IMG/VR virus record: IMGVR_UViG_3300045996_000987
Length of the DNA stretch: 64,000 nucleotides
DNA from: a virus
Direction: 5' to 3' (one strand)
A program made the position numbers and the translations under genes. The notes below the pieces were generated by a model. That model saw nothing but the letters and a program-made list of their open reading frames with translations, ran no database searches and had not been told where the DNA came from. Positions 2,538 to 63,042 of the stretch are shown here, in pieces (within the stretch, counting starts at the first letter, position 1; each line of letters starts with the position of its first letter).

Positions 2538-2595
2538 GCCTCGCCTCTGCGGTTACTTGCTCTTCGATTACTCAGCGCACGATGTGCGCACGGTT

Positions 2596-2623
2596 TACCT
2601 CCCGGCAGGCCGTAACTAGGACA
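2596..2623 (-). promoter_or_regulatory. Promoter-like element TGTCCT-N14-GGGAGGTA upstream of nrdJ
   Basis: Reverse complement of tacctccc(2596-2603)...aggaca(2618-2623); same element and spacing as 10 other copies. Confidence 0.4.
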
Positions 2624-2675
2624 GACGAAGGGCGCCGGTTGCCCGACGCCCCCGTTCGTGCCGGACCCCTAAGTC

Positions 2676-3116
2676 CTAGTGAGCCCACATCGGGATCAGT
2701 TGCCCATCGTCTGTCATCACCCGGAGGCTGATCCCAGCCTCGGTGAGCAGCGCCAACCCCTCCGGCGAACGGTACTGCTGGCGGAACACGACGTGCCGGA
2801 CCTTCGAGTTGATGATCGCTTCGGCACACGCCGCGCATGGGCTGTGCGTGACGAACATCATTAGCTCGCCCTCGTGGTAGGGCGCCTTGATGAGCGCGTT
2901 CATCTCGGCATGGAGCTTACACCCACAGTTCCCCGGCTCGTCCCGGAGGCACCCATTCGGGAGCCCCCGAGCGCGGCCGTTGTACCCGACGCTCCATGAG
3001 ATTGTCATCTCCATGTTGGTGATGACCGCCCCGACTTGGAGCCGGGCGCAGGTGCCACGGGTGGCCACCACTTCCGCGATGCACATCCACATCTCGGGCA
3101 GTGAGGGCCGTTCCAT
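2676..3116 (-). CDS. dCMP deaminase (deoxycytidylate deaminase)
   Basis: HAEMNAL and SPCAACA zinc-binding motifs. Start refined to MERPSL (ATG 3116), overlapping the upstream stop as TGATG. Confidence 0.8.
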   Translation of the reverse strand: MERPSLPEMWMCIAEVVATRGTCARLQVGAVITNMEMTISWSVGYNGRARGLPNGCLRDEPGNCGCKLHAEMNALIKAPYHEGELMMFVTHSPCAACAEAIINSKVRHVVFRQQYRSPEGLALLTEAGISLRVMTDDGQLIPMWAH

Positions 3117-3316
3117 CACGCCGGCACCGTGACGGGTCCGGGTCCGGGCATCACCCACAGCGCCTCCTCCTCGTCCTCCTCGATCTCGTCATCGTGGTCC
3201 TCGTCCTGCTCTTCGTCCTCATCCCCGAACAGGGTGGCCGAGAGCACGAAGAGGATGCCAATGACGGCGAGGATGAGCGAGAGGTACGGCGAGGGGCTGT
3301 ACTCCACGAGCCTCAT
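3116..3316 (-). CDS. Small hydrophobic protein with acidic N-terminal half
   Basis: 66-aa ORF: acidic run (DEDEEQDEDHDDEIEEDEEE) then a hydrophobic helix; translationally coupled on both sides. Confidence 0.4.
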   Translation of the reverse strand: MRLVEYSPSPYLSLILAVIGILFVLSATLFGDEDEEQDEDHDDEIEEDEEEALWVMPGPGPVTVPA

Positions 3317-3648
3317 CGCACGGCCCTCAGTCGATCTGCGAGCTTGACGTACGGCACGCGGCCGACGAAGCTCTCGATGACATGCTGGTTGCGGACGAAG
3401 AGCGTCGTGGGGAAGGCCGTGATGCGATACCGGGCCGCCGAGGCGGGACAGGCATCCACGTTCGCCTTAACCACAGCGAAACGGCCGGCGAACTCCTGCG
3501 CGAGCATGTCGAGGGACGGCGCCATCAGCTTGCACGGGCCGCAGTCCGTCTTGTAGAACTCTAGGACGACCACATCGGACGGCAGGCCGAGCAGCAGCGA
3601 CTCAAGGTGGCGGTCGTCCGGGACGTCTATGGCTTTCGCGTTATTCAT
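3313..3648 (-). CDS. trx: Thioredoxin
   Basis: FYKTDCGPCK active site and thioredoxin-fold pattern; CAAGTAACC 6 nt upstream of the ATG. Confidence 0.8.
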   Translation of the reverse strand: MNNAKAIDVPDDRHLESLLLGLPSDVVVLEFYKTDCGPCKLMAPSLDMLAQEFAGRFAVVKANVDACPASAARYRITAFPTTLFVRNQHVIESFVGRVPYVKLADRLRAVR

Positions 3649-3847
3649 CGGGGGTTACTTGTGACATGGCATGCGCCGCATTGACGGTTTCCCGCAGTAG
3701 CTCCAGCGCGTTGCCGATGATCTCGAAGTCGAAGGCCGTGAGGTCTTCGATGCTACGTCCCTGTGACCGGGACTTGCCCACCTTCCGGCGAAGCAGATCA
3801 ATGCGATTGATCGTGCGCTTCACGTCGTGCGTCTCGGAAGCCGGCAT
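3641..3847 (-). CDS. Hypothetical protein
   Basis: 68-aa ORF; CAAGTAATCGAGG upstream of the ATG. Confidence 0.35.
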   Translation of the reverse strand: MPASETHDVKRTINRIDLLRRKVGKSRSQGRSIEDLTAFDFEIIGNALELLRETVNAAHAMSQVTPDE

Positions 3848-3857
3848 TGTACCTCGA

Positions 3858-4340
3858 TTACTTGGGGCGACGCTGCTTGGGCTTCGTCTTTGTAGGCTTT
3901 GGCGTGCGGCGCGGTGGCGGGGAGGGAGACTTCTTCGGTGCGGGCTTCTTGGCCGGTGGGGGCGTAATCGCCGCAGTCGGGGCTTTCACGCGCCAGATGC
4001 CGTCCTTGCCGATCGTGCCGGTCGCGAACCGCTTGGCGTCGGGACCGCGGAGGGTCTGTTTCTTCCGGAATGGGGCCACCGCTTCCGCGCCCACGTAGCC
4101 ATCGAGAAACGAGACGATCACCTCTGTAGGACAGGCGGGATTCCCGCACGGGTACTTGAGATTGCTCACGCCGGGGATGCCGGACGGATTCCGTGTCCAT
4201 CCGCGATGCCCGGCAAGCTCGTGCTCGACCCTCTTGGCCAGCGACGGGATCGAGAAGCAGTGCGGGCAGATGGTCTTTCCGCTGTCTGGCGCATAGGCGC
4301 ACGCGACGCGTTGGACCTTGATCTTCGGGGTGCGTGCCAT
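3858..4340 (-). CDS. Zinc-ribbon protein with Pro/Lys-rich basic tail (histone H1-like), putative DNA binding
   Basis: CPHC...CGNPAC Cys4 motif; C-terminal PPPAKKPAPKKSPSPPPRRTPKPTKTKPKQRRPK. Confidence 0.45.
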   Translation of the reverse strand: MARTPKIKVQRVACAYAPDSGKTICPHCFSIPSLAKRVEHELAGHRGWTRNPSGIPGVSNLKYPCGNPACPTEVIVSFLDGYVGAEAVAPFRKKQTLRGPDAKRFATGTIGKDGIWRVKAPTAAITPPPAKKPAPKKSPSPPPRRTPKPTKTKPKQRRPK

Positions 4341-4395: not shown

Positions 4396-4851
4396 TCAGA
4401 AGGGCAGGCCGGACTTGTTGTCCGCGGACACGCCCGAGGGGCGGTTCACGGGACCACGGCCCGAGCGACGCGCGCCAGAGGGCGCCGACGACGAGGCACC
4501 ACGATCGGACCCACGCGGGGCCGACGCCTCACCGCCCATGGCCTCCTGATACTTCGCGAACGCAGCCTGCGCCATCTCCTCGACGTACTTGACACCGCGC
4601 TCATCACGAGCCTCGGCATCCACGTCATAGGCGGCACGCCAGAAGTCCGAGTATTCCGTCTTCCCGTCCTTCTCGTAGCTGCGGAACGGCGCGGCAACGA
4701 ACACGCCGTTCTTCCCCTCGATCAGCCGCACATCGCGGAACTCGATACCGATCTCGGTATCGACCGTCGTGAAGTAGGCGAGGACATTGCCCTTGCCGTT
4801 CTTCACGGGGCGCATGGCGTACTTACCGGGGAACTGGAAACGCTGGCTCAT
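4396..4851 (-). CDS. SpoVG-like nucleic-acid-binding protein with Gly/Ser/Arg-rich linker and C-terminal ...SGLPF tip
   Basis: RLIEGKNGVFVAAPFRSYEKDGKTEYSDF resembles the SpoVG core; start refined to MSQRF (ATG 4851) with GGAGCAAGTAACA upstream. Confidence 0.4.
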   Translation of the reverse strand: MSQRFQFPGKYAMRPVKNGKGNVLAYFTTVDTEIGIEFRDVRLIEGKNGVFVAAPFRSYEKDGKTEYSDFWRAAYDVDAEARDERGVKYVEEMAQAAFAKYQEAMGGEASAPRGSDRGASSSAPSGARRSGRGPVNRPSGVSADNKSGLPF

Positions 4852-4909
4852 GTTACTTGCTCCATCGAAGTGATTACTCGGCGGCATCACCGCGATGCCG
4901 CACACCCGG

Positions 4910-4937
4910 TACCTCTCGATGGGCCGTAACTAGGACA
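4910..4937 (-). promoter_or_regulatory. Promoter-like element TGTCCT-N14-GAGAGGTA
   Basis: Reverse complement of tacctctc...aggaca; sits directly downstream of the terminator at 4948-4980. Confidence 0.4.
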
Positions 4938-8529: not shown

Positions 8530-8621
8530 GTCTCTCCGGGTTACTTGTGTCGTGCGGTGATTTGATGAAGCGTCTTTTAATAGCGGGGCGGGCTATTAAA
8601 GTTTCGGGCGCTTTCCTTTAA

Positions 8622-9821: not shown

Positions 9822-9916
9822 GCGGCGGATACTTGGGGAGCCCGAAAACGGTTACTCGGAACGTACCGGAGACGCGCCGGGGGCAGGAACGTAACGCACC
9901 CCCGGCGGCTCATCCG

Positions 9917-11941: not shown

Positions 11942-12067
11942 TGCGATCTCGCGGAACGGGGTTACTTGGACACGTAGGCGGTGGACGCCGCCAAGGGCTT
12001 ACCTCTCGGCCGGGAGGAATAGGACAAGGCGACGTAACCGAAAGAGCTACGTCGCCTCGCTAGTGAC

Positions 12068-14302
12068 CTACTCGGACTCGGATCGTCCCTGCTTCTGTCG
12101 CCGGGCTTCCCATGCTCGGCGGGCGCCCTCAGCACGGGCAGGAGACATGACGGTCTTCCCGTCCCGTTTCTTCTGGCGCCACTTCCTCATATAGTCGGTG
12201 GCGTCTTCGCGCCGCCGCTCGTGGTGGGGCGCTTGCGGTTCCTTGTAGACCCCGCGGAGCTTGGCGACTTCCACGCGGGAGAGGTTTCGCAGGGCAACGG
12301 TCACCTTGCTAATTCCCCTCCGAGTGGACCCAACGGTCATTGCTTGCACCGCGAGGGGTTTTCCCGTTCCACAAACGCAAGGGCTCTCGAAGCAGGAGGG
12401 GCACACCTCCGTGGCGCGAACGCCGAGTTGGAGTGCCCGCTGATCGAGAGCGAACTGCTTTTTCTCCTCGCGCGTCATGTTCCGGCAGACGACGCTGTGA
12501 GGGGTGTTCGGGAAGTGCCGGAGCCAGATGTGAAGCTGATAGGGGCGGCCGTGGGAGCGGTCCTTCGGGTCGAACTGGATGTCGATCCGGCGCACCCAGT
12601 ACCCGATGATCCGGAGCTTGTCTTCGAGCGGGGAGTGCTCCCACGCTTCCAGCACCTCCGACGTCTCATCAAGGATCTCCTCGATCATCTGCCAGTCGTC
12701 GGTCGAGCGCATCGACGCCGACTCGGCATCCTTCACAGCCTCCTGCGCCGCCTGTAGCTCGACGCCCAACCGGGCCAGCCCGTCCCGGTGCATCTGCTTC
12801 GAGAACTCGTCCGGGGTCCGGTCGATCTCGTCGGCCTTCGCGCGTGCCGATTCGAGGATGGCCTTGACCTTGGCCTTCGCCTTCTCGACCGAGTTCTCAG
12901 ACGCCTCGACGTTGTTGACGGCCTCCTCGTAGAGCGCCTTCATGGCCAGTCCCCACGCCGGGCCGGTGCGGAACTTTTTCAGTTCGTCACGGACGGCGCA
13001 CTCCACGGACCAGCCATCGACGTGATACTCACGGCAGCCGAGCGCCTTCTGCCGCTCCCGCATCTCCTGCTTCTCGCGGTTGTAGGTGCGCGAGCGGTGC
13101 TTGTACTCGGCCGACCCGTACTGGAGAAAGTGGCCTTCCTTCCCGTTCGGCTTCCGGGTGCGGGCCGTGTAGAGGCAGCCGCAGTCCGCGCAGAACATGA
13201 TGTTCGAGAGGACACGGGCCGAGTACGGCTCCGGCCGCTTCCGGCGCTGTTGGTCCCGGCGCTCCATCTCGTCCTGCACCTTCTGCCAGAGCGAAAGGGG
13301 CACCATCGGTTCCCAGTTCGCGTCGTACCATTCCTTCTCCTGCACCTTCCGCCCGCCGTAGGGCACCTTCCCGATCAGCACCTTATTGGTGAGAACCGCC
13401 CGCACCCCCCGCGTGTCCCATAGCTCGTTGTTGTGCGAGTTCCGGTAGCCTGACTTGTTCATCAACTCCACGAGCCGGGGGAACGACCAGTGGCGCAGGA
13501 AGGCCGGGGCCAGTGTGTCGGTCCAGAACGCGATTTTCTCGTCGTGCGGCTGGAGGATGGTCGAGTTCTTCTGGCCGTAGTCGCCGGGGAGCGTCTTCAC
13601 CTCACCGAAGTCGTCGGTGTACTTCTCGCCCGTCGAGTCGCGGAGCGGCACCTTCCGGCGGGTGCAGAAGCGCACCGTACCGAACGGCGCCCGCGAGTAG
13701 ACCCAGTACCCGAGCTTGGCCCAGTCCTGCTTCCCCCGCGACGTGTCGAGCGTGAGGTTGGCCGACGTCTCACCGGCCTGCCGGATGGCCATCTGGAACG
13801 TGAAGTCATCGACTTCATCGAAGCCGGTATCGGCCACACCATTGACAAAGCGCGGCAGCCAGCCCGCCTCCCACAACTGGAGATAGACGAGCGCCGCCTT
13901 CCGGGCCTCAACGATTAGCTCGTCGTTCTTCCCCTTCCGAACCGGACGAGCGAAGCGCGACGGGTGATTGATCCGGATGTGGCACTTGTTCTCCCGTGGC
14001 TGCGGATTGGCGAGGCAGAAGGCTACCATCCGCTCGAACTGCGGGCGGTCCCACTTCCGGCCGGACATCTTGTCCCCGTAGTGCGTGGGGATCTCCGTGC
14101 CCGGAATGGTCAGCGGCACCTCGCCCCACTTCCGGTAGATCTCGTTGTGCTGCTGTGGAATGGAATGCGACTGGTTCGTCGCCTCCGCGCGAGACGACGA
14201 TCGAGCGTACACGAGGGACGTGCCCGGAGGCACGCGGAGCCCGCGGGCGGGGGTGAGCCCACCGACGAGCACCTTGAGATCGGGTCTGGCGGGTGAGGTC
14301 AT
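12068..14302 (-). CDS. Large serine recombinase (phage integrase type)
   Basis: SLVYARSSS...Q...DRPQFERM resolvase catalytic motifs, a long recombinase domain, a CADCGC zinc ribbon and a coiled-coil. Start refined to MTSPARP (ATG 14302) with GGTAACCCAA-ATG upstream. Confidence 0.8.
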   Translation of the reverse strand: MTSPARPDLKVLVGGLTPARGLRVPPGTSLVYARSSSRAEATNQSHSIPQQHNEIYRKWGEVPLTIPGTEIPTHYGDKMSGRKWDRPQFERMVAFCLANPQPRENKCHIRINHPSRFARPVRKGKNDELIVEARKAALVYLQLWEAGWLPRFVNGVADTGFDEVDDFTFQMAIRQAGETSANLTLDTSRGKQDWAKLGYWVYSRAPFGTVRFCTRRKVPLRDSTGEKYTDDFGEVKTLPGDYGQKNSTILQPHDEKIAFWTDTLAPAFLRHWSFPRLVELMNKSGYRNSHNNELWDTRGVRAVLTNKVLIGKVPYGGRKVQEKEWYDANWEPMVPLSLWQKVQDEMERRDQQRRKRPEPYSARVLSNIMFCADCGCLYTARTRKPNGKEGHFLQYGSAEYKHRSRTYNREKQEMRERQKALGCREYHVDGWSVECAVRDELKKFRTGPAWGLAMKALYEEAVNNVEASENSVEKAKAKVKAILESARAKADEIDRTPDEFSKQMHRDGLARLGVELQAAQEAVKDAESASMRSTDDWQMIEEILDETSEVLEAWEHSPLEDKLRIIGYWVRRIDIQFDPKDRSHGRPYQLHIWLRHFPNTPHSVVCRNMTREEKKQFALDQRALQLGVRATEVCPSCFESPCVCGTGKPLAVQAMTVGSTRRGISKVTVALRNLSRVEVAKLRGVYKEPQAPHHERRREDATDYMRKWRQKKRDGKTVMSPARAEGARRAWEARRQKQGRSESE

Positions 14303-14307
14303 TTGGG

Positions 14308-14490
14308 TTACCGGGTGATCCTTCGCTTGAAGGCGGTGAAGCACACCTCAATGTACTTCCGGAAGACTAGCGCCTCGTCTTCGTCCTTGTAGCGCTCTGC
14401 GATCCACGCCTTCGCGCGGGCTCGCATCTCCTCCGTGTACGGAGGAAGTGCCACCGGCATACTACTCATACGCGCACGCCGGTCAAGCAC
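14308..14490 (-). CDS. Hypothetical protein
   Basis: 60-aa ORF, likely starting at MSSMPV. Confidence 0.3.
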   Translation of the reverse strand: MLDRRARMSSMPVALPPYTEEMRARAKAWIAERYKDEDEALVFRKYIEVCFTAFKRRITR

Positions 14491-14599
14491 CCGTCCGGGT
14501 GCTCGTTGTTCTTACCGTAAAACATGATCCGGGTTACCTGATCGAGCGGTTACTTGGCGGGGGTGTCCAGTCCCCGCGGGTGGTACGTGTCCACCCACT

Positions 14600-14626
14600 A
14601 CCTCCCGATTCCCGGATCTAGGACAA
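14600..14626 (-). promoter_or_regulatory. Promoter-like element TGTCCT-N13-GGGAGGTA
   Basis: Reverse complement of tacctccc(14600-07)...aggaca(14621-26); directly downstream of the terminator at 14624-14663. Confidence 0.4.
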
Positions 14627-18424: not shown

Positions 18425-18470
18425 GTGACCTCCTTGCGGTTACTCGATCGGGTTACTTGCTCGGGAACAC

Positions 18471-22628: not shown

Positions 22629-22647
22629 GGTTGTCTCCGATGGTTGG

Positions 22648-22866
22648 TTACTTGGTGTCCTTCGCGTCCTTCTCCTCGACCGCCTTGCGCCACGCCTTGC
22701 ACGCCAGCACGAGCAGTTCGAGGTGCGCCTTCTCGTTCTGTTCCAACTCAGCGAGCGTCATCCACGAGGGGACCGCCATCCTCCCGTCCTTGATTAGCTG
22801 GACGGTCGTGGCGGTCGCCTCGTAGCTCTGGATGGCCTGATGGAGTGGCTTGTCGATCCGCCGCAT
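22648..22866 (-). CDS. Hypothetical protein
   Basis: Start refined to MRRIDKP; the upstream part of the track ORF is Arg-rich noise. Confidence 0.35.
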   Translation of the reverse strand: MRRIDKPLHQAIQSYEATATTVQLIKDGRMAVPSWMTLAELEQNEKAHLELLVLACKAWRKAVEEKDAKDTK

Positions 22867-31499: not shown

Positions 31500-31549
31500 G
31501 CGACACCTCGCGGTTACTTGGCGTTGCCTTACTGCCGGTAAGGCGCGGG

Positions 31550-32883: not shown

Positions 32884-32926
32884 ACAGTCACTCCGGTTAC
32901 TTGTTGCTTACTGGCCAGTAAGCGGG

Positions 32927-34320: not shown

Positions 34321-34323
34321 CGG

Positions 34324-36552: not shown

Positions 36553-36573
36553 GTTGGTCACTTGGGTGAGTGG

Positions 36574-36768
36574 TTACTTGGACTGCTCGAACGTGAACGG
36601 ATCGGGGCACGCGTCGTTGGTGCACCCCAAGTCCTCGCCGCTGACCTTGCCGCCACAGCCGGGACACGTCGTGTCGGGCGGGTCGGGGCGGTCGTACTTG
36701 CCGACGCCCATCGCCTCCTCCCACTCCTCGGTGGTCGTGGCGGGCATGTCGTCTCGCGGGTCGTCCAT
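36574..36768 (-). CDS. Small zinc-ribbon protein
   Basis: CPGCGG...C...C motif. Confidence 0.35.
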   Translation of the reverse strand: MDDPRDDMPATTTEEWEEAMGVGKYDRPDPPDTTCPGCGGKVSGEDLGCTNDACPDPFTFEQSK

Positions 36769-37543: not shown

Positions 37544-37548
37544 GGTGG

Positions 37549-37818
37549 TTACTTGTGAGTGGCGGCGAACTGGTACCCGTGCACCTCACCGTGGCGCCAG
37601 TGCTGCGTGCCGGTGTAGGGCTCGGGGGCGGGCTTACCCTCGAAGAACGCGCGGGCGCCGTCGAGCCAGCCGAAGGTGTACGCCATCGACTTGTGCTCGC
37701 TGGTGTCATCGAAGTAGGCGCGGAGCTTCTTCGGGTTGACGCGCTTCTGCGTCCCGTCGAGCGTGCGCTTCACCCGCTGCACATACTCCGGGCGAGGATC
37801 GGCCTGTGTCTCGGGCAT
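37549..37818 (-). CDS. Hypothetical protein
   Basis: 89-aa ORF. Confidence 0.4.
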   Translation of the reverse strand: MPETQADPRPEYVQRVKRTLDGTQKRVNPKKLRAYFDDTSEHKSMAYTFGWLDGARAFFEGKPAPEPYTGTQHWRHGEVHGYQFAATHK

Positions 37819-42282: not shown

Positions 42283-42345
42283 GATGATCCTCGCAGAAAC
42301 TTGGGTTACTTGACGTGCCTTACTGGACAGTAAGGCGGGACCGCC

Positions 42346-44984: not shown

Positions 44985-45047
44985 ACGGTTACCTCCTACG
45001 GGTTACTTGGATGGGACACGCAGCCTTACTGGGAGTAAGGCTGACAG

Positions 45048-45428: not shown

Positions 45429-45498
45429 GATCGGTTACCTCAAGCGAAGGGTTACTTGGAACGGCGGCCTTACTGGCAGTAAGGCAGGGGTACTGCGA

Positions 45499-45938: not shown

Positions 45939-45982
45939 GGTTACTTGTGGTGAAGGGTTACTTGCCTTACTGCCAGTAAGGA

Positions 45983-46756: not shown

Positions 46757-47077
46757 CTAGGCGATCTGCAAGGCAGCCATGTCAGCCTTGCGACGCTTGG
46801 CGGCGTGGTGGTAGCTGGCCAGACCGCGGACGTGGACCGCCTTGCGCTCGAACTCGATGCGGGCGGCCGTGGCGACCTTGCGGTCGAGGACCATGAGGTA
46901 GACGTACTGCTCGAACTTCGCGGCGCGCTCCGCGATGAACGCCTGCGAGTCGCGGTAGTAGGTGCCGTGGTCGGACGTGCTCACCCACGCCAGATTGGAC
47001 CCCTGCTCGCGAAGATCGGCCGCGATGCGAGCGATGGCGCGACGGATGGCGAGGAAGATGCGGACCTTGCGGATCAT
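46757..47077 (-). CDS. Hypothetical protein
   Basis: Start refined to MIRKVRIF. Confidence 0.35.
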   Translation of the reverse strand: MIRKVRIFLAIRRAIARIAADLREQGSNLAWVSTSDHGTYYRDSQAFIAERAAKFEQYVYLMVLDRKVATAARIEFERKAVHVRGLASYHHAAKRRKADMAALQIA

Positions 47078-47207
47078 GGGACGTTCTCCGGAACATGGTG
47101 ACGTGTGCCTTACTGGCGAGTAAGGCGAGGGGACTGCCATGGCGCGGCGAGGGCGCGACCCCTCGCGACCTTACTGGCAGTAAGGCCGAACCGATCCGCG
47201 CGACCGA

Positions 47208-47480
47208 CTACTCGGAAGGATCGACGTGGCCAAGCGCGACCACGTTGAGCGTGCACACGTCGCGATCGTCAAACTTCCCGTGCGGGTCGATCCGGGCGAT
47301 TTCGTGCTCGGGTTGCGTGAGGCAGTCGAGGAACGCCCGCGGCTCGGAGCCGTAGGTGAACGTGACCGCGAAGCGGCTGACGTCGGCGCGAGCGGCGAGC
47401 ATGCGACGGCCGTCGTGCTGGCCAAGGAAGAAAGCGGCGAAGGCAAGCAGAACGGCGGCGACGGTGGCGATGGCGCGCAT
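47208..47480 (-). CDS. Secreted small protein (signal peptide)
   Basis: MRAIATVAAVLLAFAAFFLG N-terminus. Confidence 0.4.
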   Translation of the reverse strand: MRAIATVAAVLLAFAAFFLGQHDGRRMLAARADVSRFAVTFTYGSEPRAFLDCLTQPEHEIARIDPHGKFDDRDVCTLNVVALGHVDPSE

Positions 47481-47689
47481 GGGACGGACTCCGGAACATG
47501 GTGGACGTTACTGGCCAGTAAGGGACGGCCCTACGGTACTGCAACGTGCGCCGTGCCTGCGAAAGCACGCGGGCGGCACCCCTGCCTTACTGGCCAGTAA
47601 TGCCGCCCGAACCGATGCGCACTGCCGTTCGACTACACTGGCGGACGGGCGCGCACGTCTCGTGCGCGTCCGGCCGGCAGTCACCACAC

Positions 47690-48403
47690 TTACGCGACCG
47701 GCATGGCAGCGACGTTCTTGCCGACCGACGTCAGGACCGCGAGAATGTCCTTGGGAGCCATGCCGTCGCGCACGCCAGCCTTGACCGCATCGGCGAAGAT
47801 CGCCGCCATCTTCACGGCGTCCATCTTGCCCGTCGTGTCCACGGCCGGCGCGTCGGTCGCGGGCGCGTCCACCGTGCCGCCCTTGCCACCCTTGCGCGAC
47901 GGCGCCGCGGCGGCCCATCCCTGCTCGATGGCGTAGAAGCTGCCGACGTTGCCCGTGAAGAAACCGACCGCGGTCGCACTGCCGTTCATGGCGTCGCGGA
48001 CGGCGCGCGTCACCTTGCTGTACCGGACGGTGAGCGAACGGTAGGCGGTCACGACGGCCGCCATGCTCTCCGGGAACGTGTCGCACGCGTTGGCGTCGAA
48101 CCGATCTTCATCGCTCGCGAACGCGTCCCACATCTTGCGCTCGGCCGGCGACAGCTTGGCCAGCAACCCCGCCCGGAGCGCGTCCACCACGGCCGCCCGG
48201 AAGCCGTCCAGCATCTTGCGCTCGCTCCACGTCGCGAGCCCCGCGGCGACGGCCGCGATGTAGAAGGACCGGGCCACGTTGTCCATCTTGCGCCCGGCCG
48301 ACCGGCCCAACGTCGCGATGTCGAGGTTGTCCGCGATGGCGCCCGTGATGAACGCGGCGGCGATGGCGAACGTGACGTTGGCGTTGCTCGTGGTCTTCGA
48401 CAT
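47690..48403 (-). CDS. Hypothetical Ala-rich protein; first gene of the leftward block
   Basis: Start refined to MSKTTSNANV with AAAGGTGACCAAA-ATG upstream. Confidence 0.4.
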   Translation of the reverse strand: MSKTTSNANVTFAIAAAFITGAIADNLDIATLGRSAGRKMDNVARSFYIAAVAAGLATWSERKMLDGFRAAVVDALRAGLLAKLSPAERKMWDAFASDEDRFDANACDTFPESMAAVVTAYRSLTVRYSKVTRAVRDAMNGSATAVGFFTGNVGSFYAIEQGWAAAAPSRKGGKGGTVDAPATDAPAVDTTGKMDAVKMAAIFADAVKAGVRDGMAPKDILAVLTSVGKNVAAMPVA

Positions 48404-48445
48404 TTTGGTCACCTTTGGAAACTGGGTTGAACAGTCGCAAGGCAT

Positions 48446-49800
48446 TCGCTTGCGACACTGGCGCGCATCGCTCCGAAACGATGCGGAACCTTGCTGCCGT
48501 TACTGGCCAGTAAGGACCGAACCTATCGCGCCGTGACGGTCGCCCGTCACTTGGCATGCGTTCCACAATCCCGGCCCGACGCAATCCCTTGTGTTGAGAC
48601 TGCCGGAATCACTGGCGAATTCCCCGTGTCACGCCCTGTCACGGCCCGGATTCATCGCCCGATATTCCACCGCTCTTGCTTCCCGCATACTTGGCCCCAT
48701 GGCGTCCGGCCGTCGCGACGTTTCACAACGTTGCCCGGATTGCGTCCGCCATTGCCTAGACCGCATTCCCCGCGATGCACTCGGCTCGCTCTTGCGGTCA
48801 CTCGCTCCACCCGGCGCCATTCTGGCGAACCTTCCGCCCGCAACCCGCGGGTTGCGTTTGAACCTCTGGCACCTTGCCCGTTTCCCTTCCCGCCCTTTGG
48901 GGTCCACCGTCCGGTCGCATCCTTTCGGGATTCCATCCCCGGCCCCATCGGGCACGGTGGCGGAATCCGTTTCGGCGCTCCGGCGGGGCCGCTTCCCGAT
49001 CCGGGGAAGCGGCACGCCCCATTGGCGCGGTGTGCCTTTCGGCACTATGTCAATCAGCATGTGGTCCGGGGCCGATACGTTGCGCATGCTTGCCGCTTGC
49101 CGCTTGTCGCGCGCCTATCGGAATGCCGTCCGCCATTCTGTGCCGTACCGTGCGCCACACGTTCGCTTGCCGCTTGCCGCTTGTCCGTGTGTCCTACGCA
49201 ACCCGCCCGCTTGCTCGTGCATCGGAGTTGCCGCCGGTACGTGCCGGTCTTCCTTACTGCCGGTAACGTTGCGTTACCGTATCCGACCCGCTTGTGTCGG
49301 TCGCGCCACGCGTTGCGCACCGGCCGGGTTGTCTTTTCTGCCCGCCGCTTTCCTTCCGACCCCTCCGCATAAGCCCTTTTACGAATGCGGCCATTTTCCC
49401 AAACCCCCCATTTGCACCGACTTACAGCGCTCGATTTGCCATGCGCAAAACGCGAATGCCCCCGGTTGCCCCCATCGTCCTCGAAGTAACTGAGGACATC
49501 ACGGGAGTAACCGGGGACAACGTGTAAGTACCCGAGAAGTACAGGCTTAAACTCAGTGAATCCGACGAAAACGACCCCTTACGCACCCCCTTCGCGTACG
49601 TATGGGGTAGCTCTCGATCAACTCATGGCCATCTCTTCGCGCTTCCTATATAGGAAAAGACGGGATCGACGTTGGAGTAGGTGATGGGGGCCGAAAAGGG
49701 TGCGGGGCCGCTGAGGGCAGTGGGCCGAAAGTGTCCTATACGGCGTAATCGAGAGGTATCAGGTACCGAGTACCAAGTAACCGATCCTCAAGTAACCGCT
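48446..49800. promoter_or_regulatory. Non-coding divergent control region between the leftward and rightward gene blocks
   Basis: No credible ORF (only Arg/Pro-rich noise frames). Contains GCTTGCC direct repeats, hairpin CCGCTTCCCG...CGGGGAAGCGG, AT-rich palindrome TTCCTATATAGGAA (about 49641-49654), GGGCCGAAA(A)G direct repeats and promoter-like element A at 49732-49758. Confidence 0.5.
49732..49758 (+). promoter_or_regulatory. Promoter-like element TGTCCT-N13-GAGAGGTA, followed by two CAAGTAACC copies
   Basis: tgtcct(49732-37) and gagaggta(49751-58), then accaagtaacc...tcaagtaaccgctc-GTG. Confidence 0.45.
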
Positions 49801-50746: not shown

Positions 50747-50815
50747 CGGGCACGTCTGGCCCTTTCGCTAGACTCGATTAGGTTTTCGCCCTACATGCCT
50801 GTCAGGGAGTAACCG

Positions 50816-51613: not shown

Positions 51614-51871
51614 ATGCGCGCCAGCACGCCCACCGTGCTCGTAGACCCGCGCGAGATCTACCGCCGAGAGCGGAACTCCCCCACGCGCGAGGGCTCGCAC
51701 GATCGCCTCATGGCCGAGGCCCAGCGCCTCTTCGACGCCGCGCTCGCAGACGACAAGGCGAAGCGCGAGACGCAGAAGAAGGGCGGGCGCCCGAAGATGA
51801 AGCCGTTGAACACCGAGACGCGGCGCCGGGCGAAAAAAGTTTTGGAGCGAGCGACCGATTCTGTCCTATAG
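51614..51871 (+). CDS. Hypothetical basic protein
   Basis: Start MRASTPTV with a GGAGAG RBS; the 3' end overlaps promoter-like element B. Confidence 0.35.
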   Translation: MRASTPTVLVDPREIYRRERNSPTREGSHDRLMAEAQRLFDAALADDKAKRETQKKGGRPKMKPLNTETRRRAKKVLERATDSVL

Positions 51872-51888
51872 GGCGTAATCGAGAGGTA
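51862..51888 (+). promoter_or_regulatory. Promoter-like element TGTCCT-N13-GAGAGGTA(AGGGGTGTAAC)
   Basis: tgtcct(51862-67), gagaggta(51881-88). Confidence 0.45.
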
Positions 51889-52391: not shown

Positions 52392-52648
52392 TCGACGTCA
52401 ACGGGCGGATCGGGGACGCACCGCCACCGTCGATGACCCTCGCGGAGTTCTGCGCCGCGTACACGGACGAGCACCGCAGGGAGTTGCACGAAGCGCTCGA
52501 AGCGCTGTGGCGAGAACGGACAGCAAAGCTCCGCGCGAGCGGAGTCGAGAAAGAGGCCGCGGAGTATGCAGCACACCTCGCGGGGGTAACCGGCAGGCAC
52601 GCTCTCCAGTTAATCAGCGCGATCCACGGAGAAACCTACAAGTGGTGA
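52388..52648 (+). CDS. Hypothetical protein (GTG start; ATG alternative at 52433)
   Basis: GTGA coupling. Confidence 0.3.
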   Translation: MIDVNGRIGDAPPPSMTLAEFCAAYTDEHRRELHEALEALWRERTAKLRASGVEKEAAEYAAHLAGVTGRHALQLISAIHGETYKW

Positions 52649-53025
52649 CGCAAGTAACCGCCCCCGAGCCCCGCGATCTCTCCGCGTGGGCACGCCAGAA
52701 GACGAACACCGAACTCGCCAGCGCGCTCGATCTCCTCGCCCGCGGCGCCCCGCAGCAGCCGGTGTTCGAGCAACAGGTGGCCATCCTACGGGAGAGCGCC
52801 CACCGCCTGCGCGAGAGCGTCGTAGACGAGCACTTCACGCTCACGATCGTCACCCCGGATGGCAGCACCGACGTCACGGTCGGCTCGCTGGAATCCGTGG
52901 CCAACTTCGAGCGCAGCTACAGTGGCGATGGCTACGCGGTCGTCCGCGCCGGACACCGCACGCTCGGTCGCGTCCCGCTTACTCCCGACGAGCAGCAGCG
53001 GCTCCGCGCGATGAGGGCCGACTGA
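52642..53025 (+). CDS. Hypothetical protein (GTG start)
   Basis: CAAGTAACC lies at codons 4-6. Confidence 0.3.
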   Translation: MVTQVTAPEPRDLSAWARQKTNTELASALDLLARGAPQQPVFEQQVAILRESAHRLRESVVDEHFTLTIVTPDGSTDVTVGSLESVANFERSYSGDGYAVVRAGHRTLGRVPLTPDEQQRLRAMRAD

Positions 53026-53830: not shown

Positions 53831-53919
53831 CACGCTGTCCCAGTTACCGCCTACCGGGAGGTAATACGTGAAAGGCACACCGCATCGGGGTGCCACAACA
53901 CGGTGCCCCGGAGGGCGGG

Positions 53920-54647: not shown

Positions 54648-54674
54648 TGTCCTGTAGGCGAAAATCGAGAGGTA
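54648..54674 (+). promoter_or_regulatory. Promoter-like element TGTCCT-N13-GAGAGGTA(AGGGGTGTAAG) upstream of the tRNA cluster
   Basis: tgtcct(54648-53), gagaggta(54667-74). Confidence 0.45.
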
Positions 54675-54950: not shown

Positions 54951-55024
54951 GTCCTTCTAGCTCAACTGGTTAGAGCAGCGGACTCTTAATCCGCAGGTTC
55001 TCGGTTCGATCCCGAGGGGGGACA
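54951..55024 (+). tRNA. tRNA-Lys(CTT): tRNA-Lys (anticodon CTT)
   Basis: Cloverleaf: acceptor GTCCTTC/GGGGGAC with two G-U pairs, D-arm GCTCAACTGGTTAGAGC, anticodon loop CTCTTAA, T-arm CTCGGTTCGATCCCGAG. Confidence 0.65.
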
Positions 55025-55166
55025 TAGGTACGGATGCAGTCGGGCCGCGGGAGTACAACATCGGGGGTGTGCGCAAGCACGAGTCGTTCCCCGTCAACGC
55101 TCCGGGTTCCGTAACTTCCGTACCGCTCGATCGAGTGGAAAGACCGGCGAAGACCCGGTACGGACA

Positions 55167-55200
55167 GGCTCCGTTCGTCTAGTCAGATAGGACGCCACTC
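55167..55200 (+). pseudogene. Diverged duplicate of the 5' half of tRNA-Glu (no 3' partner)
   Basis: GGCTCCGTTCGTCTAGTCAGATAGGACGCC shares CCGTTCGTCTA with tRNA-Glu at 55427; no complementary acceptor or T-arm follows. Confidence 0.3.
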
Positions 55201-55426
55201 ACGGCAGGTGTTGGTAGCAGGTGCGGGGCTCGCTTCATGGCGAAGCAATGCGAGGCCACAACCGTCCCGAGGCCCTAAGTTCCCACTGGTAGCTCAGTGG
55301 GCGACCTCCTTCTTAGGGTGTTCCCTCTACTCTTGGAGCGCGAACTAGGTCGCCACTGTGGTCGTAAGCGGGTAGCCTCGGAGTGTCTTGTCTTGGACAG
55401 CCCGCTCGTCGCAGGTGTCAGGTGAA

Positions 55427-55498
55427 GGCCCGTTCGTCTATCGGTTAGGACGCTACCCTTTCAAGGTGGAGAGACGAGTTCGACTCTCGTACGGGCTA
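55427..55498 (+). tRNA. tRNA-Glu(TTC): tRNA-Glu (anticodon TTC)
   Basis: Acceptor GGCCCGT/ACGGGCT, D-arm GTCTATCGGTTAGGAC, anticodon loop CTTTCAA, T-arm ACGAGTTCGACTCTCGT. Confidence 0.7.
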
Positions 55499-55938
55499 CT
55501 GCTCTTCGCTGTAACTTGAAGGGACTTAGGGAAGTGTAGGACCAGTACCGGGGCCGACATGGCATCGACTGGTATGTGACACGGAACGTCGAAGTGCGCC
55601 GAGGGACTTCATCTCGCCTCGTAAATCACGGGTGGACAAAACACAAATGCCAGCGATAACCTCGCGGCAGCGGATCGGCTTCTGGCCGAAGTTCTTGGCG
55701 GCGTAGCCGTCGAGAACCCCCACTTCGCAGCGGTCTAACGACCCTCGTAGCGGGTGACGCAACCCTGACGGACTCCGATACAGTCAGGGGCCTTGCATCG
55801 GGCGACACCGGGAGAGACTGGGGGTCTTGTCAGTGTCCCTTACCACGACTGACGACGGTTGGCTCGCTCGCCACGGGACCGTAACACCCGAAGGAGCTAC
55901 GCGCGCTGAACAAGACTGAACGACGATCATATCAACAC

Positions 55939-55963
55939 GGGAGTTCGATTCTCCCCGGCTCCA
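55939..55963 (+). ncRNA. Orphan tRNA 3'-end-like sequence (T-arm, acceptor 3' strand, CCA) ending a roughly 430-nt non-coding stretch
   Basis: GGGAGTTCGATTCTCCCCGGCTCCA; no matching 5' acceptor or D-arm upstream. Confidence 0.3.
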
Positions 55964-56181
55964 CTTGCTCCACGAGGTCACCATGCAGGTCATGTATCCA
56001 CGGACGCGAGTAACCGTACCGACAATGGAAGACGTGAAGAAGACGTGGGCGAGCCTACGTCATCGTGTGAAGTACGCGGTGAGCAAGACCTACCGTGAGC
56101 AGTTGGAACGGGAACGCGCAGAGCAGCGCGTGCGGGCCATGATGTACCTGCGGACGCCACCCGTCGTATAGCTCGCGGTAC

Positions 56182-56267
56182 GCCGGGGTATCCAAGAGGC
56201 CAAAGGGTGCTGACTGTAAATCAGCCGGGCGCCACGCCCTTCGTAGGTTCGACCCCTACCCCCGGCA
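56182..56267 (+). tRNA. tRNA-Tyr(GTA): tRNA-Tyr (anticodon GTA)
   Basis: Acceptor GCCGGGG/CCCCGGC, anticodon loop CTGTAAA, long variable arm, T-arm GTAGGTTCGACCCCTAC. Confidence 0.7.
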
Positions 56268-56274
56268 CTGTGCT

Positions 56275-56358
56275 GCTCGGATGGCGAAACTGGTAAACGC
56301 GCCAGACTTAGGATCTGGTGGGCGAAAGCCCCTGTCGGTTCGAGTCCGACTCTGAGCA
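56275..56358 (+). tRNA. tRNA-Leu(TAG): tRNA-Leu (anticodon TAG)
   Basis: Acceptor GCTCGGA/TCTGAGC, anticodon loop CTTAGGA, long variable arm, T-arm GTCGGTTCGAGTCCGAC. Confidence 0.7.
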
Positions 56359-56525
56359 TGTTGTCGCGTTTCCCCTGACAGGACGGGCGGTTAGTCATCA
56401 ACCAATATTGTCTGTCGCCGGTAGTTCGGAAATGCTCTCGTTTGATGGGGCGCGCTTGTAGAGGTGCTTAAACGCCGAAACCCCCAAAGGCACCCGTAGA
56501 TGAGCGACGGGGCCGACTACCAATG

Positions 56526-57010: not shown

Positions 57011-57037
57011 CTGTCCTGTAACCGAAAATCGAGAGGT
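57011..57037 (+). promoter_or_regulatory. Promoter-like element TGTCCT-N13-GAGAGGTA, then GTGTAACC, CAACTAACC and CAAGTAATCC before the ATG
   Basis: tgtcct(57011-16), gagaggta(57030-37). Confidence 0.45.
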
Positions 57038-57082
57038 AAGACGTGTAACCCAACTAACCCAAGTAATCCGGAGATCCCCGCC

Positions 57083-59013: not shown

Positions 59014-59040
59014 TGTCCTGTAGCGCGTAATCGAGAGGTA
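59014..59040 (+). promoter_or_regulatory. Promoter-like element TGTCCT-N13-GAGAGGTA
   Basis: tgtcct(59014-19), gagaggta(59033-40). Confidence 0.45.
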
Positions 59041-59121
59041 GTGGATGTAACTGAGCGGCACGATGCCGACCGGGCCGGACGCCCCCGCGATGGCGCCCTA
59101 CAAGTAACCCGACCGAGTAAT

Positions 59122-61367: not shown

Positions 61368-61540
61368 TGGTCGATCTCCGTGACCTCGTGGCCGCGCTCG
61401 TGCTCCTCGCCTTCGGCGGCGCCGGCTCGGCCGTTCTCGCGAACGCGGTGTGGCCGAGCATCCCGGAGGTGCCGCACGTCGTGCTGCGCGTCATCATCGT
61501 CCTGCTCGGCGTGTGGGCGCTCCGCTGGATCGCTCGGTGA
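61364..61540 (+). CDS. Small membrane protein (2 TM helices)
   Basis: Hydrophobic helices; ATGA-coupled. Confidence 0.35.
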   Translation: MMVDLRDLVAALVLLAFGGAGSAVLANAVWPSIPEVPHVVLRVIIVLLGVWALRWIAR

Positions 61541-61553
61541 GTCTGGACACGAC

Positions 61554-61590
61554 GAACGCCCCGCGGTGACTCGCGGGGCGTTCCGTTCGT
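61554..61590. terminator. Bidirectional terminator hairpin
   Basis: GAACGCCCCGCG...CGCGGGGCGTTC 12-bp stem between convergent genes. Confidence 0.55.
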
Positions 61591-61598
61591 TCGGGAGC

Positions 61599-62384
61599 TT
61601 AGAAGGTCGTCCCGAAATCGACCTCGATCAACAGGCCCCTCGGCAGCCCGGCAAGGTCGAGGAGATCCGCGAGCAGCCCGTGCATCTCAGTCATCGGGGC
61701 GAAGAACATCGTCTCGCCCTGCATGCGGCGGGTGTTGTACGTGGTCACCATCGTCCGGAGCCGCTGCCGCTGATCGTGGCCCGTGATCTTCGCGCTCGCT
61801 CGCTTGGTCGGAGGCGGGCTCACCGTCCCGACACCAACGACGGCGGTCCCGTTCTGCGCCGCCTTCCTCGCGCGGAGCTTGATGGCGTTCGGCGTCATGG
61901 AGAGCGGCTTGCCCGTTCGCGGGGAGCGAGGCACCTGCCCGTCGCTGCGCGGCGCCCTCCCCGTGGGATGGGCACCCGGACGGGGCTTCCCGGCTTGCCC
62001 CGCTGCCCGGCGTATCCGTTCGAGTTGGTCCTGTGCGAAGGCGTACTCGTAGCCGCCCGCCAGCAACTCGGCCCGGATGTCCTCCTGCGACCGCCGAAGG
62101 GCCTTCGCGAGCGCCTTCACGAGCGGCGGGACGAACGGGTGGTTCACCGGCAGTTCGTAGTTCCGCTCCATCCGCATGAGCGAGCTATCGGACACCCCGC
62201 TCGCGTCCTGCATGGCGCGGAAGCTCAGGCCCGCCTCCGTGCGCAACCGTGCGAGGTTCTTGCTGACGGCCGCCGGGGGCCGCTGGTAGAACGAGCCCTC
62301 CGCGACACTCCGGAGCGACGGAGGGAGGGCCGTGTTCGAGGCCGGCGGGGTGATCTCCCCGACGACAGGGGCGGAAGCAGCCAT
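61599..62384 (-). CDS. XRE-family helix-turn-helix transcriptional regulator with C-terminal domain
   Basis: SKNLARLRTEAGLSFRAMQDASGVSDSSLMRMERN matches the HTH_XRE pattern. Confidence 0.6.
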   Translation of the reverse strand: MAASAPVVGEITPPASNTALPPSLRSVAEGSFYQRPPAAVSKNLARLRTEAGLSFRAMQDASGVSDSSLMRMERNYELPVNHPFVPPLVKALAKALRRSQEDIRAELLAGGYEYAFAQDQLERIRRAAGQAGKPRPGAHPTGRAPRSDGQVPRSPRTGKPLSMTPNAIKLRARKAAQNGTAVVGVGTVSPPPTKRASAKITGHDQRQRLRTMVTTYNTRRMQGETMFFAPMTEMHGLLADLLDLAGLPRGLLIEVDFGTTF

Positions 62385-62402
62385 GGTGCGGATCTCCTCG
62401 GG

Positions 62403-62894
62403 TTAGGACACGGCGGCGAGCAGTTCGCTCTCGATCGCGTGCCGGAGGTCGTTGATCTGGCCCTTCACCGGGCGCATCTCCTTGAGCGAGCCGTAGCGGT
62501 CGAACCAGCGGCTCAGTTCCCGCAACGCCTGCTCGACCACCTGCTCGCGGAGCCTCGACTGCCGCATGGCCGTCTGGAGGGGGACGTACGCCTTCCGGCT
62601 GTGCGGCGTCGGCTGCACGTAGACGAATGCCTTCGTGGCTGTCTTGCGGGCGCCCTTGACGAGCACCAACTGGGACATGACCGAGCCGGTCTGCTTCGTC
62701 CGGTAGAGGTCGGCCGCCTTGGCGTCGTCGCGCTCGATCAGCGGGTGGAGGGGACTCCGGCGATCGGCCGCCTCAGCCAAGATCGTTTCCTTCGTCACGC
62801 CGCCGTGTTCCGCCGCCAACGCTTCGAGGCGGTCACCGACCGCTTGGGCGTCGGCGGTGGGGAACAGGCTTTCGTTTCGCCATGCGTAGCGCAC
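62403..62894 (-). CDS. Hypothetical protein (GTG start)
   Basis: CAAGTATCC...GGAGACGGTC-GTG context; upstream part of the track ORF rejected. Confidence 0.35.
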   Translation of the reverse strand: MRYAWRNESLFPTADAQAVGDRLEALAAEHGGVTKETILAEAADRRSPLHPLIERDDAKAADLYRTKQTGSVMSQLVLVKGARKTATKAFVYVQPTPHSRKAYVPLQTAMRQSRLREQVVEQALRELSRWFDRYGSLKEMRPVKGQINDLRHAIESELLAAVS

Positions 62895-63042
62895 GACCGT
62901 CTCCGAGTTACAGGGTCCGTGGGATACTTGTGGACAAACGCCGTAAGTGGCTGCCCGCAAGGATGATACCGAGGCGTCCCGGACGGCGCCACCCTCTGCC
63001 CCCGTGGGGTGCCCCGGAGGGTGTAACTGGTGGCCATGGGAC

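Follow-up and report, generated by a model that had tools for sequence, protein, structure and literature searches.

In a 64-kb stretch of viral DNA (IMG/VR record IMGVR_UViG_3300045996_000987; 64,000 nt, 65% GC; hereafter, the window), about 30 genes carry a 9-nt sequence, CAAGTAACC, right next to their ribosome-binding site. We suggest, with a probability of about 0.45, that this motif is a lineage-specific mRNA element in the translation-initiation region, read by a trans-acting factor that co-evolves with it. A sequence-only reading of the same DNA had described the motif before the starts of dozens of genes on both strands. We recovered it upstream of ~30 genes, as 20 exact copies and 44 copies with at most one mismatch, and the examples that had been listed all hold by eye: nrdJ (2537), trx (3648), 4851, 8529, dnaN (26268, with CAAGTATCC), 14302 (with GGTAACC), 17378, 21209, 31499, 32883, 44984, 45428, 49802 (two copies), 50816, 59122, and 62894.

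A 9-mer oriented with the genes that it precedes

The 20 exact copies compare with 0.11 expected, and none of 100 dinucleotide shuffles reached that number; the shorter AGTAACC is present 28 times in the window versus 2.4 expected. Among the 44 copies with at most one mismatch, 35 are fully non-coding, while only ~22% of the window is non-coding. Orientation follows the local gene direction for all 20 exact and all 28 AGTAACC copies, which lie on the minus strand up to 46 kb and on the plus strand from 49.5 kb. To rank upstream words without a preset motif, gene starts (106) were called from codon statistics alone, and k-mers were counted in the 45 nt upstream of each. AGTAAC/GTAACC came first (26 genes versus ~1.6 expected), and words from a family of palindromes, described below, came second. 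In the sense orientation, GTAACY appears in 25 of 104 upstream windows of 40 nt but just twice across 47 kb of coding sequence. The dinucleotide shuffles and the unbiased k-mer ranking rule out chance or a compositional artefact as the source of the motif.

The motif is not universal; it serves ~30 of ~106 genes, for which the earlier wording of dozens is fair, and the copy at 52651 has no secure start downstream. Its GTAAC core is not avoided inside genes beyond what codon usage predicts (sense versus antisense). This is expected if the signal matters only beside a ribosome-binding site, and the test itself does not discriminate. In its RNA form the motif is CAAGUAACC (anti-motif GGUUACUUG), an A/U-rich island in a genome of high GC content, with a predicted single-strandedness of 0.58 versus 0.45 for its flanks and 0.49 for AT-matched controls. 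About five copies (22646, 34322, 36572, 37547, and 41189) supply the TAA stop codon of the upstream gene, too few for this to be more than incidental. The copies are listed below, with SD denoting a Shine-Dalgarno sequence.

Exact copies of CAAGTAACC
2551..2559 (-): 13 nt before the nrdJ ATG (2537), 3 nt before an SD-like GAGG
3653..3661 (-): 4 nt before the trx ATG (3648); no SD
8539..8547 (-): 1 nt before GGAG, 9 nt before ATG 8529 (Cas4-like 437-aa gene)
11960..11968 (-): 18 nt before ATG 11941; downstream of a promoter-like element at 12025 and a hairpin
14548..14556 (-): in tandem with CAGGTAACC at 14532-14540, itself 6 nt before ATG 14525
18451..18459 (-): in tandem with CGAGTAACC at 18438-18446, the latter 3 nt before AGGAGG; integrase ATG 18424
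22646..22654 (-): TAA is the upstream gene's stop; 17 nt before ATG 22628
31512..31520 (-): 2 nt before GAGG, 12 nt before ATG 31499; palindrome 6 nt upstream
32895..32903 (-): abuts GGAG; 11 nt before ATG 32883; palindrome 2 nt upstream
36572..36580 (-): TAA is the upstream stop; in tandem with CAAGTGACC at 36556-36564, the latter 3 nt before ATG
37547..37555 (-): TAA is the upstream stop; 3 nt before ATG 37543
42304..42312 (-): 21 nt before ATG 42282; palindrome 5 nt upstream
45001..45009 (-): 3 nt before AGGAGG fused to a second GTAACC (44987-44992), the latter 2 nt before ATG 44984
45450..45458 (-): 21 nt before ATG 45428; a second copy, GAGGTAACC, 4 nt before the same ATG
45939..45947 (-): abuts ATG 45938
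45956..45964 (-): tandem copy, 17 nt upstream of ATG 45938; abuts the palindrome at 45965-45981
49774..49782 (+): first of two before GTG 49802; downstream of the promoter-like element at 49733
49789..49797 (+): 4 nt before GTG 49802
52651..52659 (+): start uncertain; a GTG is possible 26 nt on, or the copy lies within the 5' end of open reading frame (ORF) 52642-53025
59101..59109 (+): 12 nt before ATG 59122 (SPFH gene)

Second and one-mismatch copies
59047 (+): second copy, GTAACT, 6 nt past the AGGTA of the promoter-like element at 59015
3856-3864 (-): CAAGTAATC
4851-4859 (-): CAAGTAACA, overlapping the ATG
9827-9835 (-), 26286-26294 (-, before dnaN), and 62922-62930 (-): CAAGTATCC
9850-9858 (-), 41189-41197 (-), and 56007-56015 (+): CGAGTAACC
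20496-20504 (-) and 22180-22188 (-): CAAGTACCC
30936-30944 (-) and 35030-35038 (-): CAGGTAACC
46215-46223 (-): CAAGTCACC
57051-57068 (+): CAACTAACC+CAAGTAATC

SD-fused copies
21213-21221 (-) and 50806-50814 (+): GGAGTAACC
ending at 17381 (-): GGAGGTAACC
ending at 34322 (-): GAGGTAACC

The motif is registered to the SD or to the start codon

The motif ends either 0-5 nt (6 cases) or 9-28 nt (26 cases) before the first usable start. Proximity to the start, as the sequence-only reading had it, therefore stood, but the loose range of 0-25 nt that it gave did not; there are two tight registers, the 5' flank of the SD and the 5' flank of the ATG, the latter sometimes filling the SD-ATG spacer. First, the 3' end of the motif lies at most 3 nt from the SD in 22 of the 31 genes in which an SD follows the motif, where free placement predicts 2.3 (P<5e-5). 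Second, only 0-4 nt separate the motif from the start codon in another 34 genes. Of these 34, 14 have an SD fused to the motif or directly adjoining its 5' side (e.g., GGAGGTAACCtgATG and caGGAGGtcGTAACTATG), against a background of 9%. This arrangement implies that transcripts run through the motif.

Neither random density nor a lack of positional bias is seen. In spacers of 60 nt or longer, the motif has a median relative position of 0.10, counted from the start; 27 of 29 copies fall in the start-side third and none in the stop-side third (Kolmogorov-Smirnov p=2e-12). As a control, we mapped the stoperators of mycobacteriophage L5 on its annotated genome (NC_001335). There, 13 of 17 sites lie at most 12 nt from the upstream stop, and those in longer spacers split 4:4 between stop side and start side. 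Hence, hugging the start is not a general property of intergenic regulatory sites, and the positional tests in the window and its relatives rule out a motif that is merely intergenic.

Two familiar identities were ruled out. The motif is not itself an SD, and the sequence-only reading was right that it is not simply the ribosome-binding site: no stretch of 4 nt or more in CAAGUAACC is complementary to CCUCC, and a separate SD-like, GGAG-type sequence lies between motif and start in 45 of 66 cases, pooled with the relatives below. A sigma-70-type -10 box is geometrically impossible because, with the SD 0-3 nt or the ATG 0-4 nt after the motif, transcription would begin within the genes and miss the SD; the position equivalent to -7 also carries no T. 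A replication-linked skewed motif (Chi, FtsK-orienting polar sequences, or primase-like) would fit the flip of orientation at 48.5-49.7 kb but leaves the start and SD registration unexplained, and we rejected it by reasoning.

The element is kept in relatives while its sequence drifts

Protein look-ups, and only these, led to eight syntenic metagenomic relatives (loci L121-L123 and L125-L128). At the DNA level, the pattern CAGTAAGG-N0-20-CAAGTAACC gave unrelated single matches only, a 25-base composite pattern had no match in viral or metagenome collections, and alignment-seeded locus searches (A1 and A3) returned nothing from viral, genome, or metagenome collections. Separately, more than 120 unrelated IMG/VR contigs (loci L001-L120) each carry a single CAGTAAGGnCAAGTAACC, which is probably a conserved gene segment unrelated to the motif.

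Unbiased k-mer counts on the database gene calls of the relatives gave these upstream elements:

L122, L123, L125, and L126: CTGTAACT(A)
L121: GGTAACT / ATAACT
L128: cTGTCACTATA
L127: CACGTTAAC(C/A)

An equivalent element precedes orthologous genes, then, and its core differs by lineage (GTAACC, GTAACT, GTCACTAT, and CGTTAAC), with a conserved width of 9-11 bp. In five relatives (L121, L122, L123, L125, and L126), sense GTAACY reaches 9.2/kb in intergenic DNA, versus 0.38/kb in coding sequence and 0.8/kb in antisense intergenic DNA, and 36 of 45 copies lie on the start side of their spacers. The 399-aa and 437-aa marker proteins of the relatives compared by gene are 37-68% identical to those of the window. 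Upstream of the orthologues (437-aa, 399-aa, integrase, and nrdJ), only the motif and the SD are kept and the rest has diverged. Tandem copies are common; the tandem before the integrase is kept in the window, L122, L123, and L126, and the nrdJ leader of L126 reads motif-SD-motif-ATG. A host-like chromosomal region resembling that of Gemmatimonadota (dnaA-dnaN; L129) has no motif, palindrome, or GTCCT...AGGTA element. Drift between lineages, together with absence from the host-like chromosome, points to a co-evolving reader rather than to a universal anti-SD.

Palindromes, promoter-like elements, and an array carry related cores

A set of 26 palindromes, (G)CCTTACTG-N1-2-CAGTAAGG(C) (GCCTTACTG-N1-2-CAGTAAGGC), each 17-18 nt long, is wholly intergenic and confined to 25.0-48.5 kb:

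Sites 1-13: 25005, 27833, 31527, 32906, 35041, 35057, 36776, 39895, 40585, 41761, 42318, 43081, 43801
Sites 14-26: 44555, 45024, 45468, 45965, 46224, 46277, 46581, 46713, 47108, 47169, 47506, 47585, 48498

Most lie 2-39 nt before an ATG or directly before a motif copy, and many of them follow a stop codon and end 2-7 nt short of the next ATG. About eight motif copies are preceded by a palindrome, whose arms are 8-9 bp and whose spacer is 1-2 nt. The likeness of the motif to a palindrome half-site, which had been noticed from the sequence, is borne out (CCAGTAAGG or CCAGTAACG versus CAAGTAACC), and palindromes 2-4 nt from an ATG carry the motif-like right arm CCAGTAACG. A single factor might plausibly recognize the half-site as well as the motif. 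The half-site arrangement differs between lineages. L127 has a palindrome of its own, GCTAACCGTTAGC (upstream of 3767, 5702, 12978, and 17985), whose half-site matches its own motif CGTTAAC (CTAAC/TTAAC). Near the divergent junction of the window, five tandem modules (46195-48560, minus strand) of the form GCGCGCATgGGTTCGG-palindrome-hairpin-GCGCGCATGGCAGTC-palindrome-TCCGGAG-ATG precede five consecutive small genes.

A second class of element, (gat)tctGTCCTR-N14-15-(G)AGGTA-nnnnGT, resembles a promoter. It has 17 matches in the window versus 1.8 expected; we judged three to be chance and kept 14, of the form GTCCYR-N14-15-(G)AGGTA-nnnnGT:

Minus strand: 2596-2622, 4910-4936, 12000-12025, 14599-14624, 19162-19187
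Plus strand: 49733-49758, 51863-51888, 53837-53862, 54649-54674, 57013-57038
Plus strand, continued: 59015-59040, 63044-63069, 63185-63210, 63584-63609

These elements are co-oriented with genes, lie upstream of the motif, often after terminator hairpins, and are unlike the sigma-70 consensus; the class is also present in L121, L122, L123, and L126. Its reader may be a sigma factor or polymerase specific to the phage. The palindrome block at 25-48.5 kb has no convincing GTCCT...AGGTA element (the single match, at 45017, looks like chance), and no sigma-70-type promoter was predicted in 40-50 kb. The usual order is promoter-like element, hairpin, motif, and SD/ATG, and the position of the motif downstream of the first two places it in the 5' untranslated region (UTR).

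Near the right end of the window, GTAAC/GTTAC cores form an array:

63316..63545: at least 10 cores in both orientations, non-coding, AT-richer, no start codon behind
Cores: AAGTAACTC (three times), CAGTAACTC, and TCGTAACTC on the minus strand; in addition, GTTACG/GTAACG copies

This array may serve as operators or iterons, or else give rise to a decoy or antisense RNA that targets the motif's reader. Close by, the palindrome AACCTCTAGGTT occurs twice, 27 nt apart (63137-63174), between divergent promoter-like elements and beside an XRE-type helix-turn-helix (HTH) gene; by its layout it looks like a classical operator pair of a local repressor. On the plus strand at 63185-63270, a promoter-like element is followed ~50-60 nt on by an intrinsic terminator (stem 63241-63257 and a T-run), which makes this segment a candidate small RNA.

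A proposed factor acting on mRNA at translation initiation

We propose that the motif would be transcribed within the mRNA and would act inside the translation-initiation region, where the trans-factor would bind the unstructured, A/U-rich 9-mer. This factor would be a small RNA-binding protein or an RNA, probably encoded by the phage, and its binding would control access of the 30S subunit to many non-structural cistrons at once. The outcome would be a translational operator or enhancer regulon, with a logic like that of RegA and an architecture like that of the start-associated sequence (SAS) and extended start-associated sequence (ESAS) of Cluster K mycobacteriophages. Recognition would take place on RNA rather than on DNA, and the effect may be activation or repression.

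Several observations weigh against this reading. Pfam and PHROGs scans of ~90 window proteins gave no RNA-binding regulator, nor any match to a RegA or RegB homologue. GTAAC cores also lie in the contexts of DNA sites, namely in the palindromes, in the bidirectional array, and inside or at the predicted start site of some promoter-like elements. The palindromes do not behave as RNA hairpins, with neither strand-specific tolerance of G·U pairs nor compensation of arm mismatches. SDs are not weaker in motif-bearing genes than in other genes and so give no sign that the motif compensates for a missing SD. Finally, the two registers put the motif at differing distances from the P site, which fits steric occlusion better than a single fixed ribosome contact.

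Three protein families were considered as the reader and rejected: the 437-aa family is a Cas4/RecB-like PD-(D/E)xK protein with four Cys; a SpoVG-like family resembles single-stranded DNA-binding protein (SSB) in its acidic ...DLPF tip; and a ProQ_C-like match is weak and lacks conservation in L122. For the 399-aa family, a fourth candidate, no structurally characterized relative turned up. The SpoVG-like proteins (~150 aa) combine a weak SpoVG-like N-terminal domain, a G/S/R-rich linker, and a ...D-L-P-F tip like the SSB C terminus, and by this composition the family may be an SSB without an OB fold. Its members are encoded at:

Window: 4396-4851 (-)
L122: 13665-14159
L126: 12763-13218
L127: 11961-12464
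L128: 6763-7257

Alternative readings of the motif

The main rival is a DNA operator of the stoperator kind, which we consider unlikely. A phage regulator, such as an immunity repressor, would bind GTAAC sites as a monomer and the palindromes as a dimer and would silence promoters and stop elongation just ahead of each cistron in the style of L5, whose stoperators are 13-mers bound by the two-domain monomeric repressor gp71 (PMC9283540, PMC6550527). The likeness to the stoperators of Cluster A phages is considerable: dozens of asymmetric intergenic sites (here more than 40, in one orientation and at ~0.7/kb, a density like that of L5; PMC9283540, PMC6550527), an orientation tied to transcription, copies at promoters, and a consensus that drifts by lineage, as operators show. 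The window palindromes share a similar half-site, and L127 has its own matching pair of motif and palindrome; changes in the palindrome arms go uncompensated, with G·U counts equal on both strands. In addition, the bidirectional array lies beside the XRE-type HTH gene, the palindrome GGTAACGttgCGTTACC adds to the DNA-site contexts of the GTAAC core, and in the promoter-like class GTAACY stands 6 nt past AGGTA in four elements and GTTAC/GTAAC beside GTCCT in five. The integrases, with their exchange of serine and tyrosine cassettes, suggest a temperate lifestyle.

Placement speaks against an operator. A roadblock needs neither tight registration to the SD (22 of 31 at 3 nt or less) nor proximity to the start, and unlike stoperators, which in L5 favor the stop side and mostly lie by the upstream stop, the motif is registered to the SD or ATG and keeps to the start side (27 of 29 in the window and 36 of 45 in the relatives). 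The L5 consensus GGTGGMTGTCAAG is present at chance level (3 matches versus 2.6 expected). No gp71-type repressor was found in the Pfam and PHROGs scans of the window, although remote homologues could escape such scans, and the separate AACCTCTAGGTT pair already looks like the operator of a local repressor. If the reader does bind DNA, stoperator-type silencing would extend beyond actinophages, and its geometry, linked to the ribosome-binding site, would be new.

We give a lower probability to a private start tag, in which a phage factor would read the 9-mer on mRNA or on non-template DNA (compare RfaH at the operon polarity suppressor, ops) and recruit ribosomes with or without an SD, the lineage code being GTAACC, GTAACT, GTCACT, or TTAACC.

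Equally improbable, in our judgment, is a signal that forms 5' ends, that is, either a short promoter of a phage-encoded RNA polymerase (RNAP) with its start site at the 3' edge of the motif or a site for a sequence-specific endoribonuclease, both yielding mRNAs that are leaderless or begin with the SD. Distances from motif to start (0-5 and 9-28 nt) resemble 5'-UTR lengths, both registers put an element of the ribosome-binding site at the putative 5' end, and the absence of predicted sigma-70-type promoters from 40-50 kb would be accounted for. Like the promoters of single-subunit RNAPs, the motif is an asymmetric element of 9-11 bp directly upstream of its unit that drifts between lineages, as the T7, T3, and SP6 promoters do. 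Positions -8 to -1 of the T7 and SP6 promoters are TCACTATA and ACACTATA, and yeast mitochondrial promoters are the 9-mers ATATAAGTA; the L128 variant cTGTCACTATAc matches this T7/SP6 segment, and its form TCACTATA equals positions -8 to -1 of the T7 promoter. Unlike such promoters, however, start-abutting copies have SDs 5' of or fused to them (14 of 34 versus 9%); these, and the motif-SD-motif-ATG leader of L126 nrdJ, mean that functional transcripts must begin upstream of the motif. Conservation spans just 9-11 bp, the density would be extreme for promoters (at least one per non-overlapping gene, with tandems 11-21 nt apart), and a separate promoter-like class is already present. The 64 kb of the window and the ~20-kb blocks from the relatives yielded neither an RNAP nor a sigma factor, and the lack of avoidance of the core in the sense strand of genes argues against a simple 6-mer nuclease site.

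Least probable is an enhancer of the epsilon type that the host ribosome itself would recognize, via S1 or a variable stretch of 16S rRNA, with lineage differences reflecting host differences. The T7 gene 10 epsilon, reportedly UUAACUUUA (Olins and Rangwala, 1989), lies a few nt 5' of the SD and was reported to work without an SD near the AUG; it was described for a handful of T7 late genes, with a proposed pairing to host 16S rRNA. The motif is likewise an A/U-rich, accessible 9-mer that precedes the SD by 0-3 nt, here against a background of 65% GC; UAACU is common to epsilon and to GUAACUAU of the relatives, whose GC content (56-66%) allows that hosts may differ. Unlike epsilon, it is a genome-wide tag that drifts by lineage and is absent before the genes of the host-like chromosome. 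L128 and the window have similar GC and different motifs, 20 exact 9-mers exceed plain A/U-richness, and the SDs of motif-bearing genes are of undiminished strength.

Comparison with known start-linked elements

The parallel to the Cluster K SAS that had been drawn from the sequence holds in architecture. The SAS was described in 2011, and by 2025 its function had yet to be tested (PMC12699233). It is a 13-mer, GGGATAGGAGCCC, which includes the SD core AGGAG, lies 3-7 bp from the start, and is restricted to the non-structural half of the genome; about half of its copies are preceded by imperfect inverted repeats of 17 bp with 4-13-bp spacers and uncompensated differences, the ESAS (PMC3203893). 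Our motif is likewise a short asymmetric repeat in one orientation, upstream of many non-structural starts, kept at orthologues across subgroups. Some copies follow an inverted repeat with uncompensated arm differences, a partial likeness to the ESAS in view of the dimensions given below. As had also been noted, the sequences differ: with up to two deviations allowed, the SAS consensus GGGATAGGAGCCC has no match in the window (1.95 expected). Unlike the SAS, the motif is a 9-mer without an SD, placed 5' of the SD, in the SD-ATG spacer, or against the ATG, 0-28 nt from starts; unlike the ESAS, its palindromes have arms of 8-9 bp, a spacer of 1-2 nt, and a half-site resembling the motif itself. 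The genome, moreover, is an unrelated, uncultivated one of ~150 kb with a probably non-actinobacterial host. Cluster K SAS/ESAS are therefore the closest in architecture, while the tests that define a SAS came out negative, as did those for stoperator placement and consensus; this is an independent system with the overall architecture of the Cluster K SAS.

In logic, the operators of T4 RegA come near. These A+U-rich, unstructured sites coincide with or directly precede the AUG of ~30 early mRNAs, and the specificity with which they are read differs between T4 and RB69, whereas RegB targets lie in the SD (PMC3014915). The motif, too, is A/U-rich and predicted to be unstructured, it abuts or closely precedes the AUG or SD of many genes, and it differs between related phages. 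RegA sites, in contrast, have no sharp consensus and include the AUG; here the 9-mer is sharp, often duplicated, and excludes the AUG.

Because the motif is separate from the SD, its effect can be separated from that of the ribosome-binding site, unlike that of the SAS, and its natural variants in at least eight relatives offer a handle on the reader through co-variation. Should a phage factor that controls translation initiation prove to be the reader, the motif would define a regulon-scale post-transcriptional switch in uncharacterized soil phages of ~150 kb, a group that also carries tRNAs, a tmRNA, DpdA, and an unusual promoter class.

The window belongs to an uncultivated lineage

Genes lie on the minus strand from 1 to 48.5 kb and on the plus strand from 49.8 kb on. 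Those named in the window, and the junction, are:

48516-49732 (~1.2 kb): non-coding divergent junction between the minus and plus gene blocks
Class II ribonucleotide reductase (RNR; nrdJ) and thioredoxin (trx): identified via orthology to L122
dCMP deaminase
DnaN: start 26268 (-)
Tyrosine integrase: neighbor is a RuvB-like AAA protein
Large serine recombinase
Cas4/RecB-like nuclease: the 437-aa family
5'-3' exonuclease
HNH/endonuclease VII gene: GTG at 49802 (+)
32927-33688 (-): DpdA homologue, E=1e-75
NUDIX
61599-62384 (-): XRE-type HTH protein
55550-55966 (+): tmRNA, phage-encoded, within 54951-56359
Within 54951-56359 (+): four tRNAs (tRNA-Lys, tRNA-Glu, tRNA-Tyr, and tRNA-Leu)

A further tRNA-Glu(ctc) at 45047-45134 (-) was called by ARAGORN only and not confirmed by Rfam. 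The DpdA homologue suggests 7-deazaguanine modification of the phage DNA. Most of the remaining window ORFs have no match in Pfam or PHROGs, and the genes in the window and in all relatives' loci are non-structural only.

The actinophage context implied by the sequence-only reading was not borne out. Deposited phages have no DNA similarity to the window and no protein similarity to its serine recombinase or 437-aa protein. DnaN has only distant matches among phage proteins (<30% identity) and is nearest to chromosomal DnaN of Gemmatimonadota (~40% identity). The host, judged from these similarities, need not be an actinobacterium and probably is not one. Homologues of the 437-aa protein lie on metagenomic contigs of up to 142-152 kb, and on this basis we assign the element to an uncultivated lineage of phage-like genomes of ~150 kb.

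The integration cassette occupies the same position throughout but differs in type: a large serine recombinase in the window (12068-14344, minus strand), L122, L123, and L126, and a tyrosine integrase with an adjacent HTH_17 gene in L121 (8509-9630) and L128 (2225-3623). This exchange suggests a temperate lifestyle with module swapping. The class II RNRs of L126 (14677-18576) and L128 (8396-13795) contain one or two inteins (LAGLIDADG/HNH), whereas that of the window is apparently intein-free. The junction at 48516-49732 holds direct repeats, GCTTGCCGCTTGCCGCTTGTC, near 49090 and 49165, and the palindrome GGTAACGttgCGTTACC at 49262-49278; it is a possible replication origin or control region.

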